Of a stretch of 64,000 nt of DNA, positions 7,439 through 15,550 are shown piece after piece (the first letter of the stretch is position 1; each line of letters starts with the position of its first letter). The notes beneath the pieces are model-generated. The model was not told the DNA's origin. It saw only the letters and a list, made by a program, of their open reading frames with translations, and searched no databases. The translations under genes were made by a program, and so were the position numbers. Where the stretch lies: the NCBI GenBank assembly GCA_965218695.1, contig OZ244651.1, forward strand, positions 1,024,001 to 1,088,000. The letters are read 5' to 3'. Origin of the DNA: Nitrosopumilus sp. Lineage in GTDB: Archaea; Thermoproteota; Nitrososphaeria; Nitrososphaerales; Nitrosopumilaceae.

Positions 7439-7486
7439 TGAGAGTGTTACATACAGGGGGTATTAGAGTTTTAAAATTTGGATAAA

Positions 7487-7561
7487 CGGACCCGACCGGA
7501 TTTGAACCGGCGACCTAACGCTCCGCAAGCGTTCGCACTATCCAAGCTATGCAACGAGTCC
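7487..7561 (-). tRNA. tRNA-Arg(GCG), intronless
   Basis: Reverse complement GGACTCGTTGCATAGCTTGGATAGTGCG-AACGC-TTGCGGA-GCGTT-AGGTCGCCGGTTCAAATCCGGTCGGGTCCG folds as a cloverleaf with anticodon GCG. Confidence 0.96.
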
Positions 7562-7596
7562 GAATTGTGTGCATGGTTTGTGTTTAATTTGGATTG

Positions 7597-10366: not shown

Positions 10367-11989
10367 TTAGAAGCCTTTTGGAAGTGTACCTCGGGAGGCC
10401 TTTGGTGGTTCTGGTTCAGGTTCTGGCGTAAACCCCTTGGGTAGAACGCCGCGGCCCTTCTTGGCATTAGCTGCTGCTGCCACAGCATTTGCTTCAGCTT
10501 GTAGTGCTTTCTGATATGCTTGCTCTGCTTCAATTCTTTCTTGCTCGATTCTTTTGAGGTAGCTGCCTTCATAATCCTTCAATTGCTCTTGTCTTGATTT
10601 CATGTCATTGTCGCTATGTCTTGTTTGCTGTGGAGGTGGAGCCTGCTGTGTTTGTGCTGGTTCCGGTGCCTGTGTGGCAGTACCGCCTTCGAAACTCATA
10701 CCCACACCACTAAATGACCCAAACGTCTTGTCGGGAGGGTGATATGCCAGTCGTGCCCTTGTTGCAAAGTACTGGTTGGATGGCTGCGTATAGCCTGTAA
10801 CCTTGGCCTTTTGATCGTTCCAGTTGGTTGTCGGAACGCTTCCCACAGGTGCAGTCAGTCGTACATAGTATCGGTTAGGAGACGGTGAGTATCCGGTCAC
10901 CTTTGTCCTGTATTCGTGGAAGTCCGTCTGTGGGCTTGCATAGTATGCATCCTCCAATGCGGCATTGAATGTTGCCGGTGGCTGTGATGTTGTTTCTGCA
11001 GGCTTTGGTGCCTCCTTGGGCTTTGGTGCCTCCTTGGGCTTTGGCTTGTCAAATCCCTTTGGAAGTGTTCCCTTGGGCTTGGCAGTCTCTGCAGGCTTTG
11101 GTGCCTCCTTGGGCTTTGGCTTGTCAAATCCCTTTGGAAGTGTTCCCTTGGGCTTGGCAGTCTCTGCAGGCTTTGGTGCCTCCTTGGGCTTTGGTGCCTC
11201 CTTGGGCTTTGGCTTGTCAAATCCCTTTGGAAGTGTTCCCTTGGGCTTGGCAGTCTCTGCAGGCTTTGGTGCCTCCTTGGGCTTTGGCTTGTCAAATCCC
11301 TTTGGAAGTGTTCCCTTGGGCTTGGCAGTCTCTGCAGGCTTTGGTGCCTCTTGGGGCTTTGGTGCCTCTTGGGGCTTTGGTGCCTCTTGGGGCTTTGGTG
11401 CCTCTTGGGGCTTTGGTGCCTCTTGGGGCTTTGGTGCCTCTTGGGGCTTTGGTGCCTCTTGGGGCTTTGGTGCCTCTTGGGGCTTTGGTGCCTCTTGGGG
11501 CTTTGGTGCCTCTTGGGGCTTTGGTGCCTCTTGGGGCTTTGGTGCCTCTTGGGGCTTTGGTGCCTCTTGGGGCTTTGGTGCCTCTTGGGGCTTTGGTGCC
11601 TCTTGGGGCTTTGGTGCCTCTACATTGGCAGTTACCTTTCGTGGCCTGCCTCTTGGTCTTGGAGTCTTTGGTGTCGTGTCAGCAGTTACCTTTCGTGGCC
11701 TGCCTCTTGGTCTTGGAGTCTTTGGTGTCGTGTCAGCAGTTACCTTTCGTGGCCTGCCTCTTGGTCTTGGAGTCTTTGGTGTCGTGTCAGCAGTTACCTT
11801 TCGTGGCCTGCCTCTTGGTCTTGGAGTCTTTGGTGTCGTGTCAGCAGTTACCTTTCGTGGCCTGCCTCTTGGTCTTGGAGTCTTTGGTGTCGTGTCAGCA
11901 GTTACCTTTCGTGGCCTGCCTCTTGGTCTTTTAGATCCAGTCTGTGATGTGCTTGGCTTTTTGCTTGAACTTGCGTTGTCATTTGCCAT
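10367..11989 (-). CDS. Repeat-rich Lys/Pro protein with 6 AT-hooks, EAPKPQ repeats, LPKGF motifs and a conserved C-terminal domain
   Basis: 540-aa ORF; PRGRPRK x6 in 54-nt repeats; non-repetitive TDFHEYRTKVTGY domain shared with 12378-13541. Confidence 0.85.
   Translation of the reverse strand: MANDNASSSKKPSTSQTGSKRPRGRPRKVTADTTPKTPRPRGRPRKVTADTTPKTPRPRGRPRKVTADTTPKTPRPRGRPRKVTADTTPKTPRPRGRPRKVTADTTPKTPRPRGRPRKVTANVEAPKPQEAPKPQEAPKPQEAPKPQEAPKPQEAPKPQEAPKPQEAPKPQEAPKPQEAPKPQEAPKPQEAPKPQEAPKPQEAPKPQEAPKPQEAPKPAETAKPKGTLPKGFDKPKPKEAPKPAETAKPKGTLPKGFDKPKPKEAPKPKEAPKPAETAKPKGTLPKGFDKPKPKEAPKPAETAKPKGTLPKGFDKPKPKEAPKPKEAPKPAETTSQPPATFNAALEDAYYASPQTDFHEYRTKVTGYSPSPNRYYVRLTAPVGSVPTTNWNDQKAKVTGYTQPSNQYFATRARLAYHPPDKTFGSFSGVGMSFEGGTATQAPEPAQTQQAPPPQQTRHSDNDMKSRQEQLKDYEGSYLKRIEQERIEAEQAYQKALQAEANAVAAAANAKKGRGVLPKGFTPEPEPEPPKASRGTLPKGF
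11338..11620. repeat. 18-bp tandem repeat (about 16 copies, encodes EAPKPQ)
   Basis: Perfect tandem GCTTTGGTGCCTCTTGGG. Confidence 0.97.
11628..11930. repeat. 54-bp tandem repeat (about 5.6 copies, one AT-hook per unit)
   Basis: GCAGTTACCTTTCGTGGCCTGCCTCTTGGTCTTGGAGTCTTTGGTGTCGTGTCA repeated. Confidence 0.97.
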
Positions 11990-12126
11990 TCCTTACAGTA
12001 AATACAGCACTGTTTATTTACATTTTGATTAGTGCATACCATGGTTCAAATTAATTCATAAAATTAGACAAAAATTTGCAAAAATTTTATTGCGTTGCGA
12101 TCTAGGCCTAAAGGGAGATCTGTGAG

Positions 12127-12327
12127 TTAATCAGGTTCCCAAAATGCCATTACATACATGCAGTTATTGCATCGCCAGAGGTTTACATGAATTCCGTTGT
12201 CGGTGTCTGCAACGTATTTTCCTTCATCAGTCCGGCTTACCTTGGGCAGGTAACTCAATTCAGGGCTCTGTAGCCATTCCCTTTGTTGGCAGTTGGGACA
12301 TATGATATTTGGAGGCATAAATGACAT
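12127..12327 (-). CDS. Small zinc-ribbon protein
   Basis: 66 aa with CPNC ... WRCNNC. Confidence 0.75.
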   Translation of the reverse strand: MSFMPPNIICPNCQQREWLQSPELSYLPKVSRTDEGKYVADTDNGIHVNLWRCNNCMYVMAFWEPD

Positions 12328-12377
12328 ACGCAGTAATCAAAAAAAACATTTCTATGAAAAAGAGAAGAATTGTGGGG

Positions 12378-13541
12378 TTAGAAACCTTTTGGAAGCTTGC
12401 CCTTTGCGGGTTTTGGTTCCGGTGTCTGCTCTGCCTGTGTGGCAGTACCGCCTTCGAAACTCATACCCACACCACTAAATGACCCAAACGTCTTGTCGGG
12501 AGGGTGATATGCCAGTCGTGCCCTTGTTGCAAAGTACTGGTTGGATGGCTGCGTATAGCCTGTAACCTTGGCCTTGTGATCGTTCCAGTTGGTTGTCGGA
12601 ACGCTTCCCACAGGTGCAGTCAGTCGTACATAGTATCGGTTAGGAGACGGTGAGTATCCGGTCACCTTTGTCCTGTATTCGTGGAAGTCCGTCTGTGGGC
12701 TTGCATAGTATGCATCCTCCAATGCGGCATTGAGTGTTGCCGGTGGCTGTGATGTTGTTTCTGCAGGCTTTGGTGCCTCCTTGGGCTTTGGTGCCTCCTT
12801 GGGCTTTGGCGTGTCAAATCCCTTTGGAAGTGTTCCCTTGGGCTTTGGTGCCTCCTTGGGCTTTGGTGCCTCCTTGGGCTTTGGTGCCTCCTTGGGCTTT
12901 GGCGTGTCAAATCCCTTTGGAAGTGTTCCCTTGGGCTTGGCAGTCTCTGCAGGCTTTGGTGCCTCCTTGGGCTTTGGTGCCTCCTTGGGCTTTGGCGTGT
13001 CAAATCCCTTTGGAAGTGTTTCCTTGGGCTTGGCAGTCTCTGCAGGCTTTGGTGCCTCCTTGGGCTTTGGTGCCTCCTTGGGCTTTGGCGTGTCAAATCC
13101 CTTTGGAAGTGTTCCCTTGGGCTTGGCAGTCTCTGCAGGCTTTGCGGCCGTATCGGTAGTTAACTTCCGTGGCCTGCCTCTTGGTCTTGCAGGCTTTGCG
13201 GCCGTATCGGTAGTTAACTTCCGTGGCCTGCCTCTTGGTCTTGCAGGCTTTGCGGCCGTATCGGTAGTTAACTTCCGTGGCCTGCCTCTTGGTCTTGCAG
13301 GCTTTGCGGCCGTATCGGTAGTTAACTTCCGTGGCCTGCCTCTTGGTCTTGCAGGCTTTGGTGCCTCCTTGGGCTTTGGCTTGTCAAATCCCTTTGGAAG
13401 TGCTCCCTTGGGCTTGGCAGTCTCTGCAGGTTGCTGTTCTGAATCAAGACTTGATTGTATGTCTGTGGTGTAATCGTGTAGTGATGTCTCTAAATCAGCA
13501 GCTTCGTCGTAATTTTTAGGCGATTTTTTAGCTTTTTGCAT
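12378..13541 (-). CDS. Paralogous repeat-rich protein with 4 AT-hooks and LPKGF motifs
   Basis: 387-aa ORF; ARPRGRPRKLTTDTAAKP x4; C-terminal domain almost identical to 10367-11989. Confidence 0.85.
   Translation of the reverse strand: MQKAKKSPKNYDEAADLETSLHDYTTDIQSSLDSEQQPAETAKPKGALPKGFDKPKPKEAPKPARPRGRPRKLTTDTAAKPARPRGRPRKLTTDTAAKPARPRGRPRKLTTDTAAKPARPRGRPRKLTTDTAAKPAETAKPKGTLPKGFDTPKPKEAPKPKEAPKPAETAKPKETLPKGFDTPKPKEAPKPKEAPKPAETAKPKGTLPKGFDTPKPKEAPKPKEAPKPKEAPKPKGTLPKGFDTPKPKEAPKPKEAPKPAETTSQPPATLNAALEDAYYASPQTDFHEYRTKVTGYSPSPNRYYVRLTAPVGSVPTTNWNDHKAKVTGYTQPSNQYFATRARLAYHPPDKTFGSFSGVGMSFEGGTATQAEQTPEPKPAKGKLPKGF
13134..13358. repeat. 54-bp tandem repeat (4 copies, AT-hook unit, different linker from the first paralog)
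   Basis: TGCAGGCTTTGCGGCCGTATCGGTAGTTAACTTCCGTGGCCTGCCTCTTGGTCT repeated. Confidence 0.95.
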
Positions 13542-13599
13542 TGCTCTGAGTGAATGATCTGGGGTTTATGTATATTTGGGTTATCTGGGGTGTGTCCTA

Positions 13600-14643
13600 G
13601 AGGCATATACCCCCGGATGACAAAAGATATGGATCGGCGGATCACGGCATCGCCTAATGACTACAAAGAAACGCGACCAACGACAGTACGATTTGGTTCA
13701 GCAGTACCTGTCGGGCCTCATGCTGAATACCGTGCTGGGAATAATCAAGAATCTTGGGGATCCGTACGCCGTCAGGCCCGGTCTGGGTGGCATGACGGCA
13801 TACCCGCCTGGCGCCATGGCAGCTGTCTGCATCATGCTTGAGGCACAGCGCACGACCTACCGTAAGATGGTCGGCATCCTCCGAAACAATAGCGCCATGG
13901 CAGCCAAGATGGGCCTAGAGAAAATTCCCTCCAAGAGCACGATAGCACGCGCCTACGGCCTGATCCCGGAATGGTACCTGGCAGAGGCACACCGGATTGC
14001 CATCAGGGAGGTGGAGGCAGGCTCCTTGGCAGCAGACAGCACCGGGTACTCGTACCTGCGGTTTGTCAGGTGGTTTAACGTCAGGACCGACAGTTTTCGT
14101 ACCAGAAAGGGATGGGTCAAGCTGCACGCAATCGTGGACATACGCACCAGGGTGATAATCGACTGCATGGTGACTGACAGCGCAGTGGCAGACATAAACG
14201 GGCTGTACGCGATGCTCGGCAGGCTCGGCCTAGGCACCGGTGACTTTTGCCTGGATTCTGCATACCTGGCAAGGCTCATGTGCAACATGATATCTGCGAT
14301 GGAAATGGTGCCCCGCATCAAGCCAAAATCCAACACCATACGCAACGCCAGGGGAAGTCAGTCGTGGCGCGAGATGGTAAGCCTGTACATGGATGACAAG
14401 GACAGGTTTGACTCGGAATACCACCAGCGCAGCATCATCGAGGCAGTCTTTGCAGCCCTCAAGAAGATGTACGGGGACAGCACCAGGTGCCGAAAACACG
14501 AGAACCGGACAAGGGAGACTGCGATCCGTGTCATGTGCTACAACGTCGAGCTCGTGGCCAGATTGCAGGCAAAAGACGGCAGGCTCACACAGGATCAAAT
14601 CGCGACACTTGCAGCGTAACCGGCGCGTCTTGACACGCGCCTC
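13600..14643 (+). mobile_element. IS5-family insertion sequence
   Basis: Short termini GAGGC.../...GCCTC flanked by CTA on both sides (13597-99, 14644-46); the IR beyond 5 bp is imperfect. Confidence 0.75.
13657..14619 (+). CDS. IS5-like DDE transposase
   Basis: AADSTG, WVKLHAIVD, LDSAY, YHQRSIIEAVFAALK motifs. Confidence 0.92.
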   Translation: MTTKKRDQRQYDLVQQYLSGLMLNTVLGIIKNLGDPYAVRPGLGGMTAYPPGAMAAVCIMLEAQRTTYRKMVGILRNNSAMAAKMGLEKIPSKSTIARAYGLIPEWYLAEAHRIAIREVEAGSLAADSTGYSYLRFVRWFNVRTDSFRTRKGWVKLHAIVDIRTRVIIDCMVTDSAVADINGLYAMLGRLGLGTGDFCLDSAYLARLMCNMISAMEMVPRIKPKSNTIRNARGSQSWREMVSLYMDDKDRFDSEYHQRSIIEAVFAALKKMYGDSTRCRKHENRTRETAIRVMCYNVELVARLQAKDGRLTQDQIATLAA

Positions 14644-15550
14644 CTAGCGGAGCCTCCGCACAGTGTCTTGAATTTGGGGGATTTTATGGGTTGTGAAAGA
14701 TTGACGGTGCGGCACTGTTGGTGTCGACGGGTTCTGGCACCAATCATGTCTTTGGCATCTTGGCACATGAAATGGCATTTTTTATTACTAGAACACACCC
14801 GGTTATCTGACTACGCCTCCTCATCCGGCGTATCTGGGCATGAACCATGCAAATAACTCCGCTTGGTTTTGAAACAATCTGAGCATGTATGTCTGATTCT
14901 CCGAATACGAGTGGTAACTGTATTCTCATCTTCGTACTGATGTTGTGCCTACCATGCCCTCTTGAATGGGATCCGTATGGATGTTTTACAAAATTACATC
15001 GGGCTCGTCCCACACTGATGCAAACATCACCGGTACTGTCTCTGGGGTATGGGGATGAGGCTGGCGCAGATATTTGTGTACAAAATGTCTTCAAAAGGAG
15101 AATTGGTGGTTGGCAAGCAGACTGGCGAGAAATACCATGTCTGGTGGGGGAGGCTATTTCTCGTACACCTGAATTGCCATGGATGTCAATTTGAATAAAT
15201 GGTGAATTCTTTTATGATTAATTGCGGCCAGACGTGTTTTGGGCATGTCCTGCAAACACGGATTCATATCTTGACCACGCAGGTTTGGTTTTTTCAGCGT
15301 AATAATCAAAAGCATGACACGTGTCATTGGCACGGTATGACATGCACCACGGCATTATGTCCGTGTAGCCAAACTCTGGCAGTCGCGTATGGGGGATCGG
15401 CGTCACGCATGCTGAATCTTTATTGTGGCTGGAACGTGATTCACAGCAAGCAGCCAAGCACAAAACGTGCATCATCTTGATTTGATGGTACAGAGAACAT
15501 CCGACCCAGCATAATCAAGTTTTATATGCATAGGGCGTTTATGATGTTTG

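Follow-up and report, generated by a model that had tools for sequence, protein, structure and literature searches.

HMGA proteins are about 100 amino acids (aa) long, carry three AT-hooks and end in an acidic C-terminal tail, and binding in the minor groove at A/T tracts is the established behaviour of the AT-hooks in these proteins. CarD of Myxococcus has an HMGA-like AT-hook region and an N-terminal CarD_CdnL_TRCF domain, an RNA-polymerase-interacting domain, and works together with CarG, a small zinc-binding protein that does not itself bind DNA. CsoS2 of the carboxysome and EPYC1 of the pyrenoid are sticker-and-spacer condensate scaffolds. The bacterial xenogeneic silencers H-NS, Lsr2 and MvaT (abstracts of PMC4466236 and PMC6936261) are built from an oligomerisation helix and a flexible linker, together with a minor-groove motif that resembles an AT-hook, with a preference for AT-rich DNA in a genome of higher guanine-cytosine (GC) content. 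Here, we report the analysis of a pair of genes for multi-AT-hook proteins in a 64,000-nucleotide window of Nitrosopumilus sp. (assembly GCA_965218695.1, contig OZ244651.1, positions 1,024,001 to 1,088,000 of the forward strand), whose genome is referred to as G000. The encoded proteins, P0002 and P0001, are the short and the long form of a conserved, uncharacterised paralog pair, assigned here to the LPKGF family after its repeated motif, and their AT-hooks are a lineage-specific N-terminal remodelling of this family-wide pair. A preliminary description of the window had proposed a candidate chromatin/scaffold system of HMGA-like proteins; as a self-contained “HMGA-like system” it could not be upheld, since the proteins represent a paralog pair of a family found throughout the Nitrosopumilaceae. 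The nucleoid-organising, xenogeneic-silencing and host-directed effector functions suggested there would be candidate functions. The feature is real and unusual, less self-contained than first thought and broader in scope. New here is a putative multi-AT-hook type of DNA-binder on a new, uncharacterised family of candidate scaffolds, for which a nucleoid-associated role as a DNA-tethered multivalent scaffold is the most likely one, a proposal that we put forward tentatively. The locus contains the following elements.

10367-13541, minus strand: three co-oriented genes, P0002, P0003 and P0001 (open reading frames, ORFs)
10367..11989, minus strand: P0001, long paralog of the LPKGF family, 540 aa (ORF and translation)
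10463..10597, minus strand: coiled-coil-like C-terminal extension, long paralog only (SRQEQLKDYE...; from the sequence)
10682..10975, minus strand: 98-aa Tyr/Arg-rich module of the long paralog, P0001 residues 339-436 (alignment A1)
11351..11620, minus strand: EAPKPQ repeats, 15 exact, in the Pro/Lys spacer of P0001 (Tandem Repeats Finder, TRF: 18-bp unit, 15.8 copies, 100% identity)
11636..11929, minus strand: six AT-hooks RPRGRPRK with an 18-aa period and the linker VTADTTPKTP, P0001 residues 21-118 (Pfam, repeats)
12127..12327, minus strand: P0003, Zn-ribbon protein, 66 aa, CPNC...CNNC, ending in FWEPD (ORF)
12378..13541, minus strand: P0002, short paralog of the LPKGF family, 387 aa (ORF, translation, Pfam)
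12447..12740, minus strand: 98-aa module of the short paralog, P0002 residues 268-365 (alignment A1)
13164..13349, minus strand: four AT-hooks RPRGRPRK with an 18-aa period and the linker LTTDTAAKPA, P0002 residues 65-126 (Pfam, repeats)

The six and four canonical AT-hooks first reported, with their exact 18-aa spacing and the quoted linkers, are all present and far beyond chance. Pfam AT_hook scores 22.9 bits in P0001 and 27.8 bits in P0002 (cut-off 17.4), and nothing besides this family exceeds its cut-off in either protein. A degenerate DNA pattern for RGRPRK gave 10 matches in G000, all within these two genes, compared to one match for the reversed control pattern, and a six-frame scan of the whole genome yielded these two genes alone as multi-hook ORFs. 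The 54-bp hook unit is present in 5.6 copies of 100% identity in P0001 and in 4.3 copies of 99% identity in P0002 and the linkers differ between the arrays; each array was thus homogenised on its own, in keeping with the earlier suggestion that the arrays were amplified separately. The common 18-aa period, noted at first, is no conserved constraint because the arrays of relatives run at periods of 17, 18 and 19 aa. Units of 99-100% DNA identity are error-prone for assemblers, and close relatives on short contigs have fewer hooks (P0004 and P0005, 2 each), which might suggest that assembly errors produced the arrays, or at least their copy numbers, and that the ORFs are no real genes. However, the ORFs are open over 1.2-1.6 kb with end-to-end homology with hundreds of proteins, two other chromosome-level relatives have 4-5 hooks in both paralogs with linkers of their own, and the assembly of G000 comprises 9 contigs, one of them of 2.46 Mb. 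An artefact is hardly credible; just the exact repeat copy number is open to doubt.

P0001 and P0002 were described from the outset as co-oriented, Lys/Pro-rich and devoid of a signal peptide and a transmembrane (TM) helix. Indeed, the two minus-strand ORFs encode strongly basic proteins (isoelectric point (pI) 10.1, net charge +52 and +39, respectively), in which no TM helix or signal-like segment was detected (maximum Kyte-Doolittle value of a 19-residue window, 0.28). Among the 22 family proteins for which the pI was computed, 21 fall between 9.2 and 10.3, and the window proteins are the most positive. P0001 consists, from its N-terminus, of the AT-hook array, the EAPKPQ spacer, four KPKGTLPKGF units in Pro/Lys spacers, the 98-aa module, a Gln/Pro linker, the coiled-coil-like stretch (465-509) and two more LPKGF motifs, the last of which is the C-terminus. 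P0002 begins with a divergent, acidic, helix-like N-terminus and a first LPKGF, followed by the AT-hook array, four LPKGF units, the module and a terminal LPKGF, and shares 93% identity with P0001 over 242 aa. The C-terminal extension of the long paralog, the coiled-coil character of which we infer from its sequence, is also found in the long orthologs P0014, P0021, P0050, P0112 and P0229. Each protein has six copies of the LPKGF motif, rightly recognised as a repeated one, with the sixth copy as its final five residues, and G.LPKGF was confined to the P0001 and P0002 genes in a six-frame scan of the whole 2.63-Mb G000. PGF-CTERM signals combine an N-terminal signal peptide with a PGF motif that is followed by a TM helix and then by a basic tail. 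Such an archaeosortase signal was rejected for the window proteins, as their chain stops right after LPKGF and no TM or signal segment is present at the hydropathy given above.

The shared aromatic domain and its internal duplication were likewise recovered: it spans 98 aa in both proteins, and the duplication is real because two KVTGY units are present. Its hallmarks are two VTGY units and an ATRxRLAYHPxDKxF motif, with 27 invariant columns in alignment A1. Between the two window copies, a 93-aa core shows 97.8% protein identity and 99.3% DNA identity. AlphaFold 2 (AF2) modelling of the P0002 module from a 41-sequence alignment gave no confident fold (predicted local distance difference test, pLDDT, 52.9) and distant homologs keep only short motifs, suggesting that the module is a set of linear motifs or a domain that folds on binding, or else that the alignment is too shallow for AF2. 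Two database matches were discarded, namely the NCBIfam EntB/EntC matches in the Pro/Lys repeats, which are of low complexity (30-58 bits compared to cut-offs of 770-780), and a CFA/I fimbrial subunit from the PDB profile search, which is regarded as spurious, as it covers a 27-residue stretch at E 0.57-0.83 for single-copy chains and its low E of 5.7e-07 stems from a triple-fusion chain.

The second module unit (NWNDQK..VTGYT.....YF) gave sub-threshold matches to Pfam Cauli_VI (PF01693), the RNase H1 N-terminal hybrid-binding domain, in P0002 (E 0.33) and in four of ten other members (E 0.058-0.26), always at positions 15/16-39 of the 44-position profile. When G000 was searched in six frames with Cauli_VI, the outcome was the P0001 and P0002 genes as the sole matches at E<=10 (13.9 and 13.5 bits; cut-off 21), and no true members of this family were found in 301 genomes of the phylum. 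The resemblance may be taken as a lead for the fold, below significance and short of membership. It bears on a rival function, namely binding to RNA or RNA-DNA hybrids with assembly into ribonucleoproteins; the module unit would then be RNase H1-like and the extended AT-hooks would bind structured RNA. The recurrence of the match, which is unique in G000, and the Tyr/Arg-rich, basic composition would suit such a function. However, the scores stay below the 21-bit cut-off with 25 of 44 profile positions covered, and AF2 does not yield the RNase H1 N-terminal fold; we consider such an RNA- or hybrid-binding assembly quite unlikely.

A phmmer search with the C-terminal 123 residues of P0002 as query returned 946 family proteins at E<=1e-3, the best 120 of which score E 1e-49 to 1e-66. 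A precomputed Pfam domain is recorded in one family protein only and in none of the others, and the names given in databases are “trans-sialidase” (NCBI, UniRef) or “hypothetical protein”. Neither a beta-propeller nor a BNR/Asp-box match was obtained with Pfam or NCBIfam at E<=1, and a sialidase identity was dismissed; because P0001 and P0002 contain no sialidase domain, “trans-sialidase” is a misnomer, which probably originates from the low-complexity repeats. One JGI family member is named “U3 small nucleolar ribonucleoprotein component”, with no domain support. Publications on the LPKGF family or on archaeal AT-hook arrays were not found in the open-access literature (subscription journals were outside the scope), and a literature match of LPKGF to SARS-CoV-2 nucleocapsid epitopes is a coincidence.

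Contigs with family genes are titled Nitrosopumilus, Nitrosarchaeum, Cenarchaeum, Candidatus Nitrosomaritimum and other Nitrosopumilaceae, and cultured free-living carriers include N. maritimus (WP_238523194.1), N. zosterae, N. adriaticus, N. ureiphilus and strains SW and K4. Whether free-living orthologs lack AT-hooks, a point raised in the preliminary description, can be answered in the affirmative, as the proteins of N. maritimus, N. zosterae, N. adriaticus and N. ureiphilus possess the module and LPKGF and no hooks. With a single-protein query, the family was detected in 18/24 genomes of the same genus and in 0/16 genomes from 16 other families of the order, whereas a profile search detected it in 25 of the 27 Nitrosopumilaceae genomes (at least 90% completeness) and in one of 93 genomes from other families of the order, the last being a weak match with internal stops. 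An exhaustive profile search of 1.84 billion representatives returned only 105 clusters, and as weak evidence against fused long forms no protein of 679-2000 aa scored. The LPKGF family thus appears, by these searches, to be narrow but deep.

The family plan comprises a basic N-terminal tail, a coiled-coil-like helix (LExKIxxLExKL), a Pro/Lys/Glu spacer and at least one G-x-LPKGF, followed in the C-terminal part by the 98-aa Tyr/Arg-rich module of two related units and a near-invariant terminal LPKGF. Typical members start with MAAAKKQTKKDLEDKIAELEAKL..., continue with a PAETK-type spacer and one or two KPKGTLPKGF, and close with the module and a terminal GTLPKGF. Distant members keep the N-terminal Lys/Arg tail and helix LEAKIAELEAKL as well as G-T-LP-x-G-F, together with one or two motifs of ~25 aa (YTG.N.Y..TR.RLAYHP.DK.F) with long linkers between them. 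Loci L013-L088 contain 55 distinct complete family ORFs; LPKGF is terminal in 51 of them, with LPKGY in 1 more, and the strict N-terminal helix motif is found in 37. Most genomes carry a short (~220 aa) and a long (~310 aa) form about 1 kb apart, the long form having a second coiled-coil-like segment and two further LPKGF motifs as extras; one short-tail and one long-tail form were present in all 11 two-ORF loci examined, and the window pair fits this arrangement. The basic tail and LExKIxxLExKL helix are missing in the window pair, where P0001 has hooks instead and P0002 a divergent acidic helix-like stretch. This loss of the usual N-terminus is a lineage-specific change and no ground for exclusion from the family.

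The two forms evolve in concert. Over the 93-aa core, the short and long modules share 97-100% DNA identity within each of 11 genomes (the window and loci L009, L011, L013, L014, L021, L024, L027, L052, L056 and L066, all with both paralogs), compared to a mean of 74% and a maximum of 95-96% between genomes. The pair is therefore continually homogenised by gene conversion between direct repeats ~1 kb apart, yet kept as two forms, and conversion persists across the intervening Zn-ribbon gene. Such concerted evolution, taken as a sign of selection for likeness between the two forms, would fit their co-assembly and is no proof of it. In another genome of the same genus (G090:C1:1516198-1519716), three tandem copies with a 965-bp period were observed of the short paralog plus a Zn-ribbon copy with an in-frame TAA, and the long paralog adjoins them.

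Besides the window pair, at least two AT-hooks were found in only four of the 55 family ORFs, which are the short and long forms of L013 and L014, the loci of the two closest relatives (module identity to the window 91% and 89%, respectively). These proteins have 4-5 hooks each, with their own linkers and the three periods given above, and the GC content of the loci is 0.51 (L013) and 0.54 (L014), compared to 0.30-0.43 for most other loci. Because L013 and L014 carry hooks in both paralogs, we conclude from the sequences that hooks were already present in both paralogs in the ancestor of the small clade formed by G000 and these two relatives, and that the arrays of the clade have since been homogenised separately. 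In this clade, the hooks replace the N-terminal helix in the long form and are inserted behind the first LPKGF in the short form, and the internal LPKGF units have grown to 4-5, compared to 1-2 elsewhere.

A scan of 201 Nitrosopumilaceae genomes, a tally that includes the unpublished genome G204 (one isolated match), gave any match to the RGRPRK pattern in 46, mostly single and at control level. Periodic arrays (at least three matches at 51-57-bp spacing) were seen, among the matches listed, only in G000, G018 and three genomes of genus g28 (G131, G208 and G224). In g28 the hooks reside on a stand-alone protein of 85-154 aa, which consists of a short N-terminal helix and 3-6 AT-hooks (RGRPRK) in exact tandem repeats with a 17-19-aa period and a Thr/Pro-rich linker KTATTETPAPPKRG (Pfam AT_hook E 9e-17 and 2e-09). 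Its genes were located by pattern scan and Pfam as follows.

L092, 3972-4436, plus strand: g28 stand-alone AT-hook protein
L093, 4104-4511, plus strand: g28 stand-alone AT-hook protein
L094, 3487-3744, minus strand: g28 stand-alone AT-hook protein

The gene lies upstream of those for Elp3 and class I LysRS, and the encoded protein, in itself apparently a hitherto undescribed AT-hook protein of archaea, matches just the two window arrays in G000 (56-59% identity over 90-105 aa). The LPKGF-family protein of the same three g28 genomes carries no hook at all and keeps the usual helix at its N-terminus. Therefore, the two modules are separate in one genus and fused in another, and two archaeal genera or more make recurrent use of AT-hook arrays. 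P0077 (335 aa; also L016 4278-5285) carries an HHH_5/DUF4332 helix-hairpin-helix region ahead of the usual family helix, and is thus a further case in which the LPKGF family acquired a DNA-type module by fusion, the second one and independent of the first.

These comparisons bear on two further explanations. The AT-hook forms could be host-directed effectors (nucleomodulins) of a host-associated archaeon that are exported into the nucleus of a eukaryotic host, given that AT-hooks are established as mainly a eukaryotic motif and that G000 is atypical for its genus, with 2.63 Mb, a GC content of 52.8% and at least 25 copies of one insertion sequence (IS). However, orthologs of this housekeeping-looking pair occur in free-living species, with core, synteny and concerted evolution kept; a signal peptide or TM segment was not detected; and a similar hook array is found on the small, cytoplasmic-looking g28 protein beside Elp3 and LysRS. 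We regard export to a host as very improbable.

The other explanation, a possible albeit rather unlikely one, is that the family functions as a cytoplasmic adaptor or scaffold unrelated to DNA, for instance in Cdv/ESCRT division, in a cytoskeleton or at the inner membrane face. In that case, anionic lipids or a protein would be the target of the polybasic N-terminus, LPKGF would serve for docking, and the hooks of this clade would be a secondary neo-functionalisation or one more polybasic tail. In line with this, the usual N-terminus is a basic patch with an amphipathic or coiled helix, which gives weak sub-threshold matches to DivIC, bZIP, M-protein repeat and L29 helices; the C-terminal peptide is invariant, as for a docking ligand, and the spacers are Pro-rich; and the core family, restricted to one archaeal family, has no known DNA-binding domain. 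On the other hand, ten canonical AT-hooks are much more specific than a generic polybasic tail, the HHH_5/DUF4332 fusion arose independently within the family, and neither a hydrophobic or amphipathic membrane segment in the proteins nor, by Pfam annotation of the neighbouring genes, any Cdv gene near the locus was found.

P0003, the 66-aa CxxC..CxxC gene product noted between the pair at the start, has homologs of 57-97% identity that are co-oriented beside family genes in 30 fetched loci. In the alignment of 30 sequences (A2), the mean column identity is 80%, and CPNC, CNNC, several aromatics and the C-terminal FWE are invariant, the following P-D nearly so. Synteny with the Zn-ribbon gene, which the preliminary description had singled out for checking, therefore holds in these 30 loci and does not extend to the family as a whole: in the order-level sample, the gene was found in 11/27 Nitrosopumilaceae genomes, where a family gene always lies less than 1 kb away, and it also occurs alone in three genomes of two other families of the order, with no LPKGF-family gene nearby. 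With the 66-aa query, it was not found in genera g18 and g20, of which G041, G107, G104 and G119 keep both paralogs adjacent. Because it went undetected there in the presence of both paralogs and occurs elsewhere without them, the Zn-ribbon protein is regarded as a frequent but dispensable accessory.

The AF2 model of P0003 (pLDDT 86.9) is all-beta, with two CxxC knuckles that fit a zinc ribbon, and no Pfam family exceeded its cut-off. Structure searches gave the MqsA N-terminal domain as the best Foldseek (PDB) match at E 0.19, compared to a significance threshold of E<=0.001, and NrdR as the best VIA match at Z 3.6; the named families with which P0003 was compared (NrdR, TFIIS/Rpb9, TFIIB, the MqsA N-terminal domain and L44e) gave generic, insignificant matches. 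The homolog search produced 54 clusters, all unnamed or “hypothetical” and with no Pfam family. Co-prediction of the module (A1) with the Zn-ribbon (A2) gave no answer (score 0.00) and speaks neither for nor against binding. Elsewhere in the order, in a different family, a Zn-ribbon homolog of 40% identity (L089 5111-5686, minus strand) is located beside a 124-aa ORF with a DTGA motif, which by eye has the look of a retropepsin-like aspartyl protease; small antitoxin-like ORFs and a transposase, and no LPKGF-family gene, surround them.

Taken together, it is proposed that P0001 and P0002 are cytoplasmic, largely disordered “sticker-and-spacer” scaffolds, in agreement with the low pLDDT of the module and with distant homologs that consist of ~25-aa motifs between long linkers. 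In the clade of the window, the hook arrays would anchor the proteins in the minor groove of A/T tracts, and LPKGF peptides and the Tyr/Arg module would engage a partner, each other or nucleic acid in a multivalent manner, the outcome being a DNA-tethered bridging or scaffolding protein; the ancestral basic tail and coiled coil may provide the same anchoring without sequence preference. A/T-only tracts of at least 8 bp occur at 1.42/kb in G000 compared to 9.29/kb in 340 kb of low-GC relatives' loci (about 6.5x rarer), and within G000 at 3.67/kb outside long ORFs compared to 0.87/kb inside them, by a crude ORF map. Because the tracts are ~4x denser outside long ORFs, the hooks would concentrate the protein on intergenic DNA.

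Several observations weigh against such a DNA-tethered scaffold. AT-hooks are also able to bind RNA, and the usual family N-terminus could equally bind membrane, RNA or protein. No relative of the module, DNA-binding folds included, was found in Pfam, NCBIfam, the PDB profile search or the ESM Atlas. The argument from fusion draws on two or three events and on a low-complexity similarity of 56-59%. In the Nitrosopumilaceae with 62-67% GC (L051, L068, L077, L079, L086 and L088), AT-hooks are absent from the family; GC alone thus fails to explain the gain of hooks and was ruled out as its general driver. Finally, the genes around the pair, encoding UbiD, a radical-SAM MqnC/CofH-like protein, a peroxiredoxin and an aquaporin, are unrelated housekeeping genes.

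Apart from these housekeeping genes, the neighbourhood, which is uninformative, contains only an IS element.

13588..14800, plus strand: IS element with a DDE_Tnp_1 / DUF772 transposase ORF at 13657-14619 (Pfam)

It is inserted 46 bp upstream of the P0002 ATG, an AT-rich TATA-like stretch is still present between the two, and the insertion is context outside the system. The main contig of G000 holds at least 25 near-full-length copies of the same IS with 92-98% identity, and this IS has expanded in G000, a genome of 2.63 Mb and 52.8% GC compared to 0.7-2.2 Mb in the genus and about 30-43% GC in most relatives' loci. Two plus-strand ORFs, 10965-12032 (355 aa) and 12730-13473 (247 aa), were rejected as shadow frames of the low-complexity coding repeats, and are at risk of being miscalled as genes. 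A tRNA-Arg(GCG) at 7486-7562 (minus strand) is the sole tRNA of the window. A sigma-70 promoter/terminator scan was disregarded, being not applicable to archaea.

Nitrosopumilaceae are among the most abundant archaea of the ocean. Histones make up <0.06% of the N. maritimus proteome (PMC7613761), and what organises the nucleoid of these archaea is therefore an open question. A bolder proposal, which in this form we hold to be unlikely, is that the LPKGF pair, with the frequent Zn-ribbon protein, is an unrecognised major nucleoid scaffold of histone-poor marine ammonia-oxidising archaea, acting as a dimeric, disordered, multivalent linker that joins DNA to other DNA or to a partner by means of its repeated LPKGF peptides and Tyr/Arg module, and that the mid-GC clade captured a g28-type AT-hook array and became selective for rare, mostly intergenic A/T tracts. 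If true, it would be an archaeal functional analogue of H-NS/Lsr2-type proteins with a valency set by repeat number. The natural “domain swap” of hook arrays for the usual N-terminus leads to the concrete hypothesis that the whole family is DNA-associated, and the invariant C-terminal LPKGF offers a handle for partner finding in cultivable species. The pair is family-wide, strongly conserved, unstudied, wrongly named and without a Pfam family; should the link to DNA be wrong, it would still be an unexplained pair of high conservation and concerted evolution, in a clade of key importance to the environment.

Compared to known systems, the window proteins resemble HMGA1 and HMGA2 in having several R-G-R-P AT-hooks on a disordered basic chain with no folded DNA-binding domain, from which multivalent minor-groove binding of spaced A/T tracts is expected. 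Unlike HMGA proteins, they are archaeal, are 387 and 540 aa long, have 4-6 hooks in perfect tandem and an unrelated conserved module with LPKGF, and end in ...KGxLPKGF with no acidic tail; they are not demonstrable homologs of HMGA. The gene-pair logic of an AT-hook protein and a Zn protein recalls CarD-CarG as an analogy only. The N-terminal CarD_CdnL_TRCF domain of CarD is unmatched in P0001 and P0002 (Pfam E<=1), CarG is much larger than the 66-aa ribbon and has a zincin-like motif, and the P0003 model matches CarD/CdnL N-terminal domains at Z 2.8-3.6, the same level as many unrelated rows. H-NS, Lsr2 and MvaT share the plan of helix, linker and hook and the AT-rich DNA preference proposed here, whereas their single hook-like loop lies in a folded domain, unlike the 4-6 free hooks of the window proteins, in which no H-NS, Lsr2 or MvaT domain was matched by Pfam or NCBIfam at E<=1. 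With CsoS2 and EPYC1, the likeness, an analogy only, lies in a disordered chain with a short conserved peptide repeated between spacers and a tunable valency, while there is no sequence relation to the window proteins. The g28 stand-alone protein belongs to the same archaeal family and has tandem RGRPRK hooks of 56-59% identity to the window arrays, differing from the window proteins in its length of 85-154 aa and its composition of helix and hooks only, without LPKGF or the 98-aa module. It is the closest real relative of the window hook cassette.

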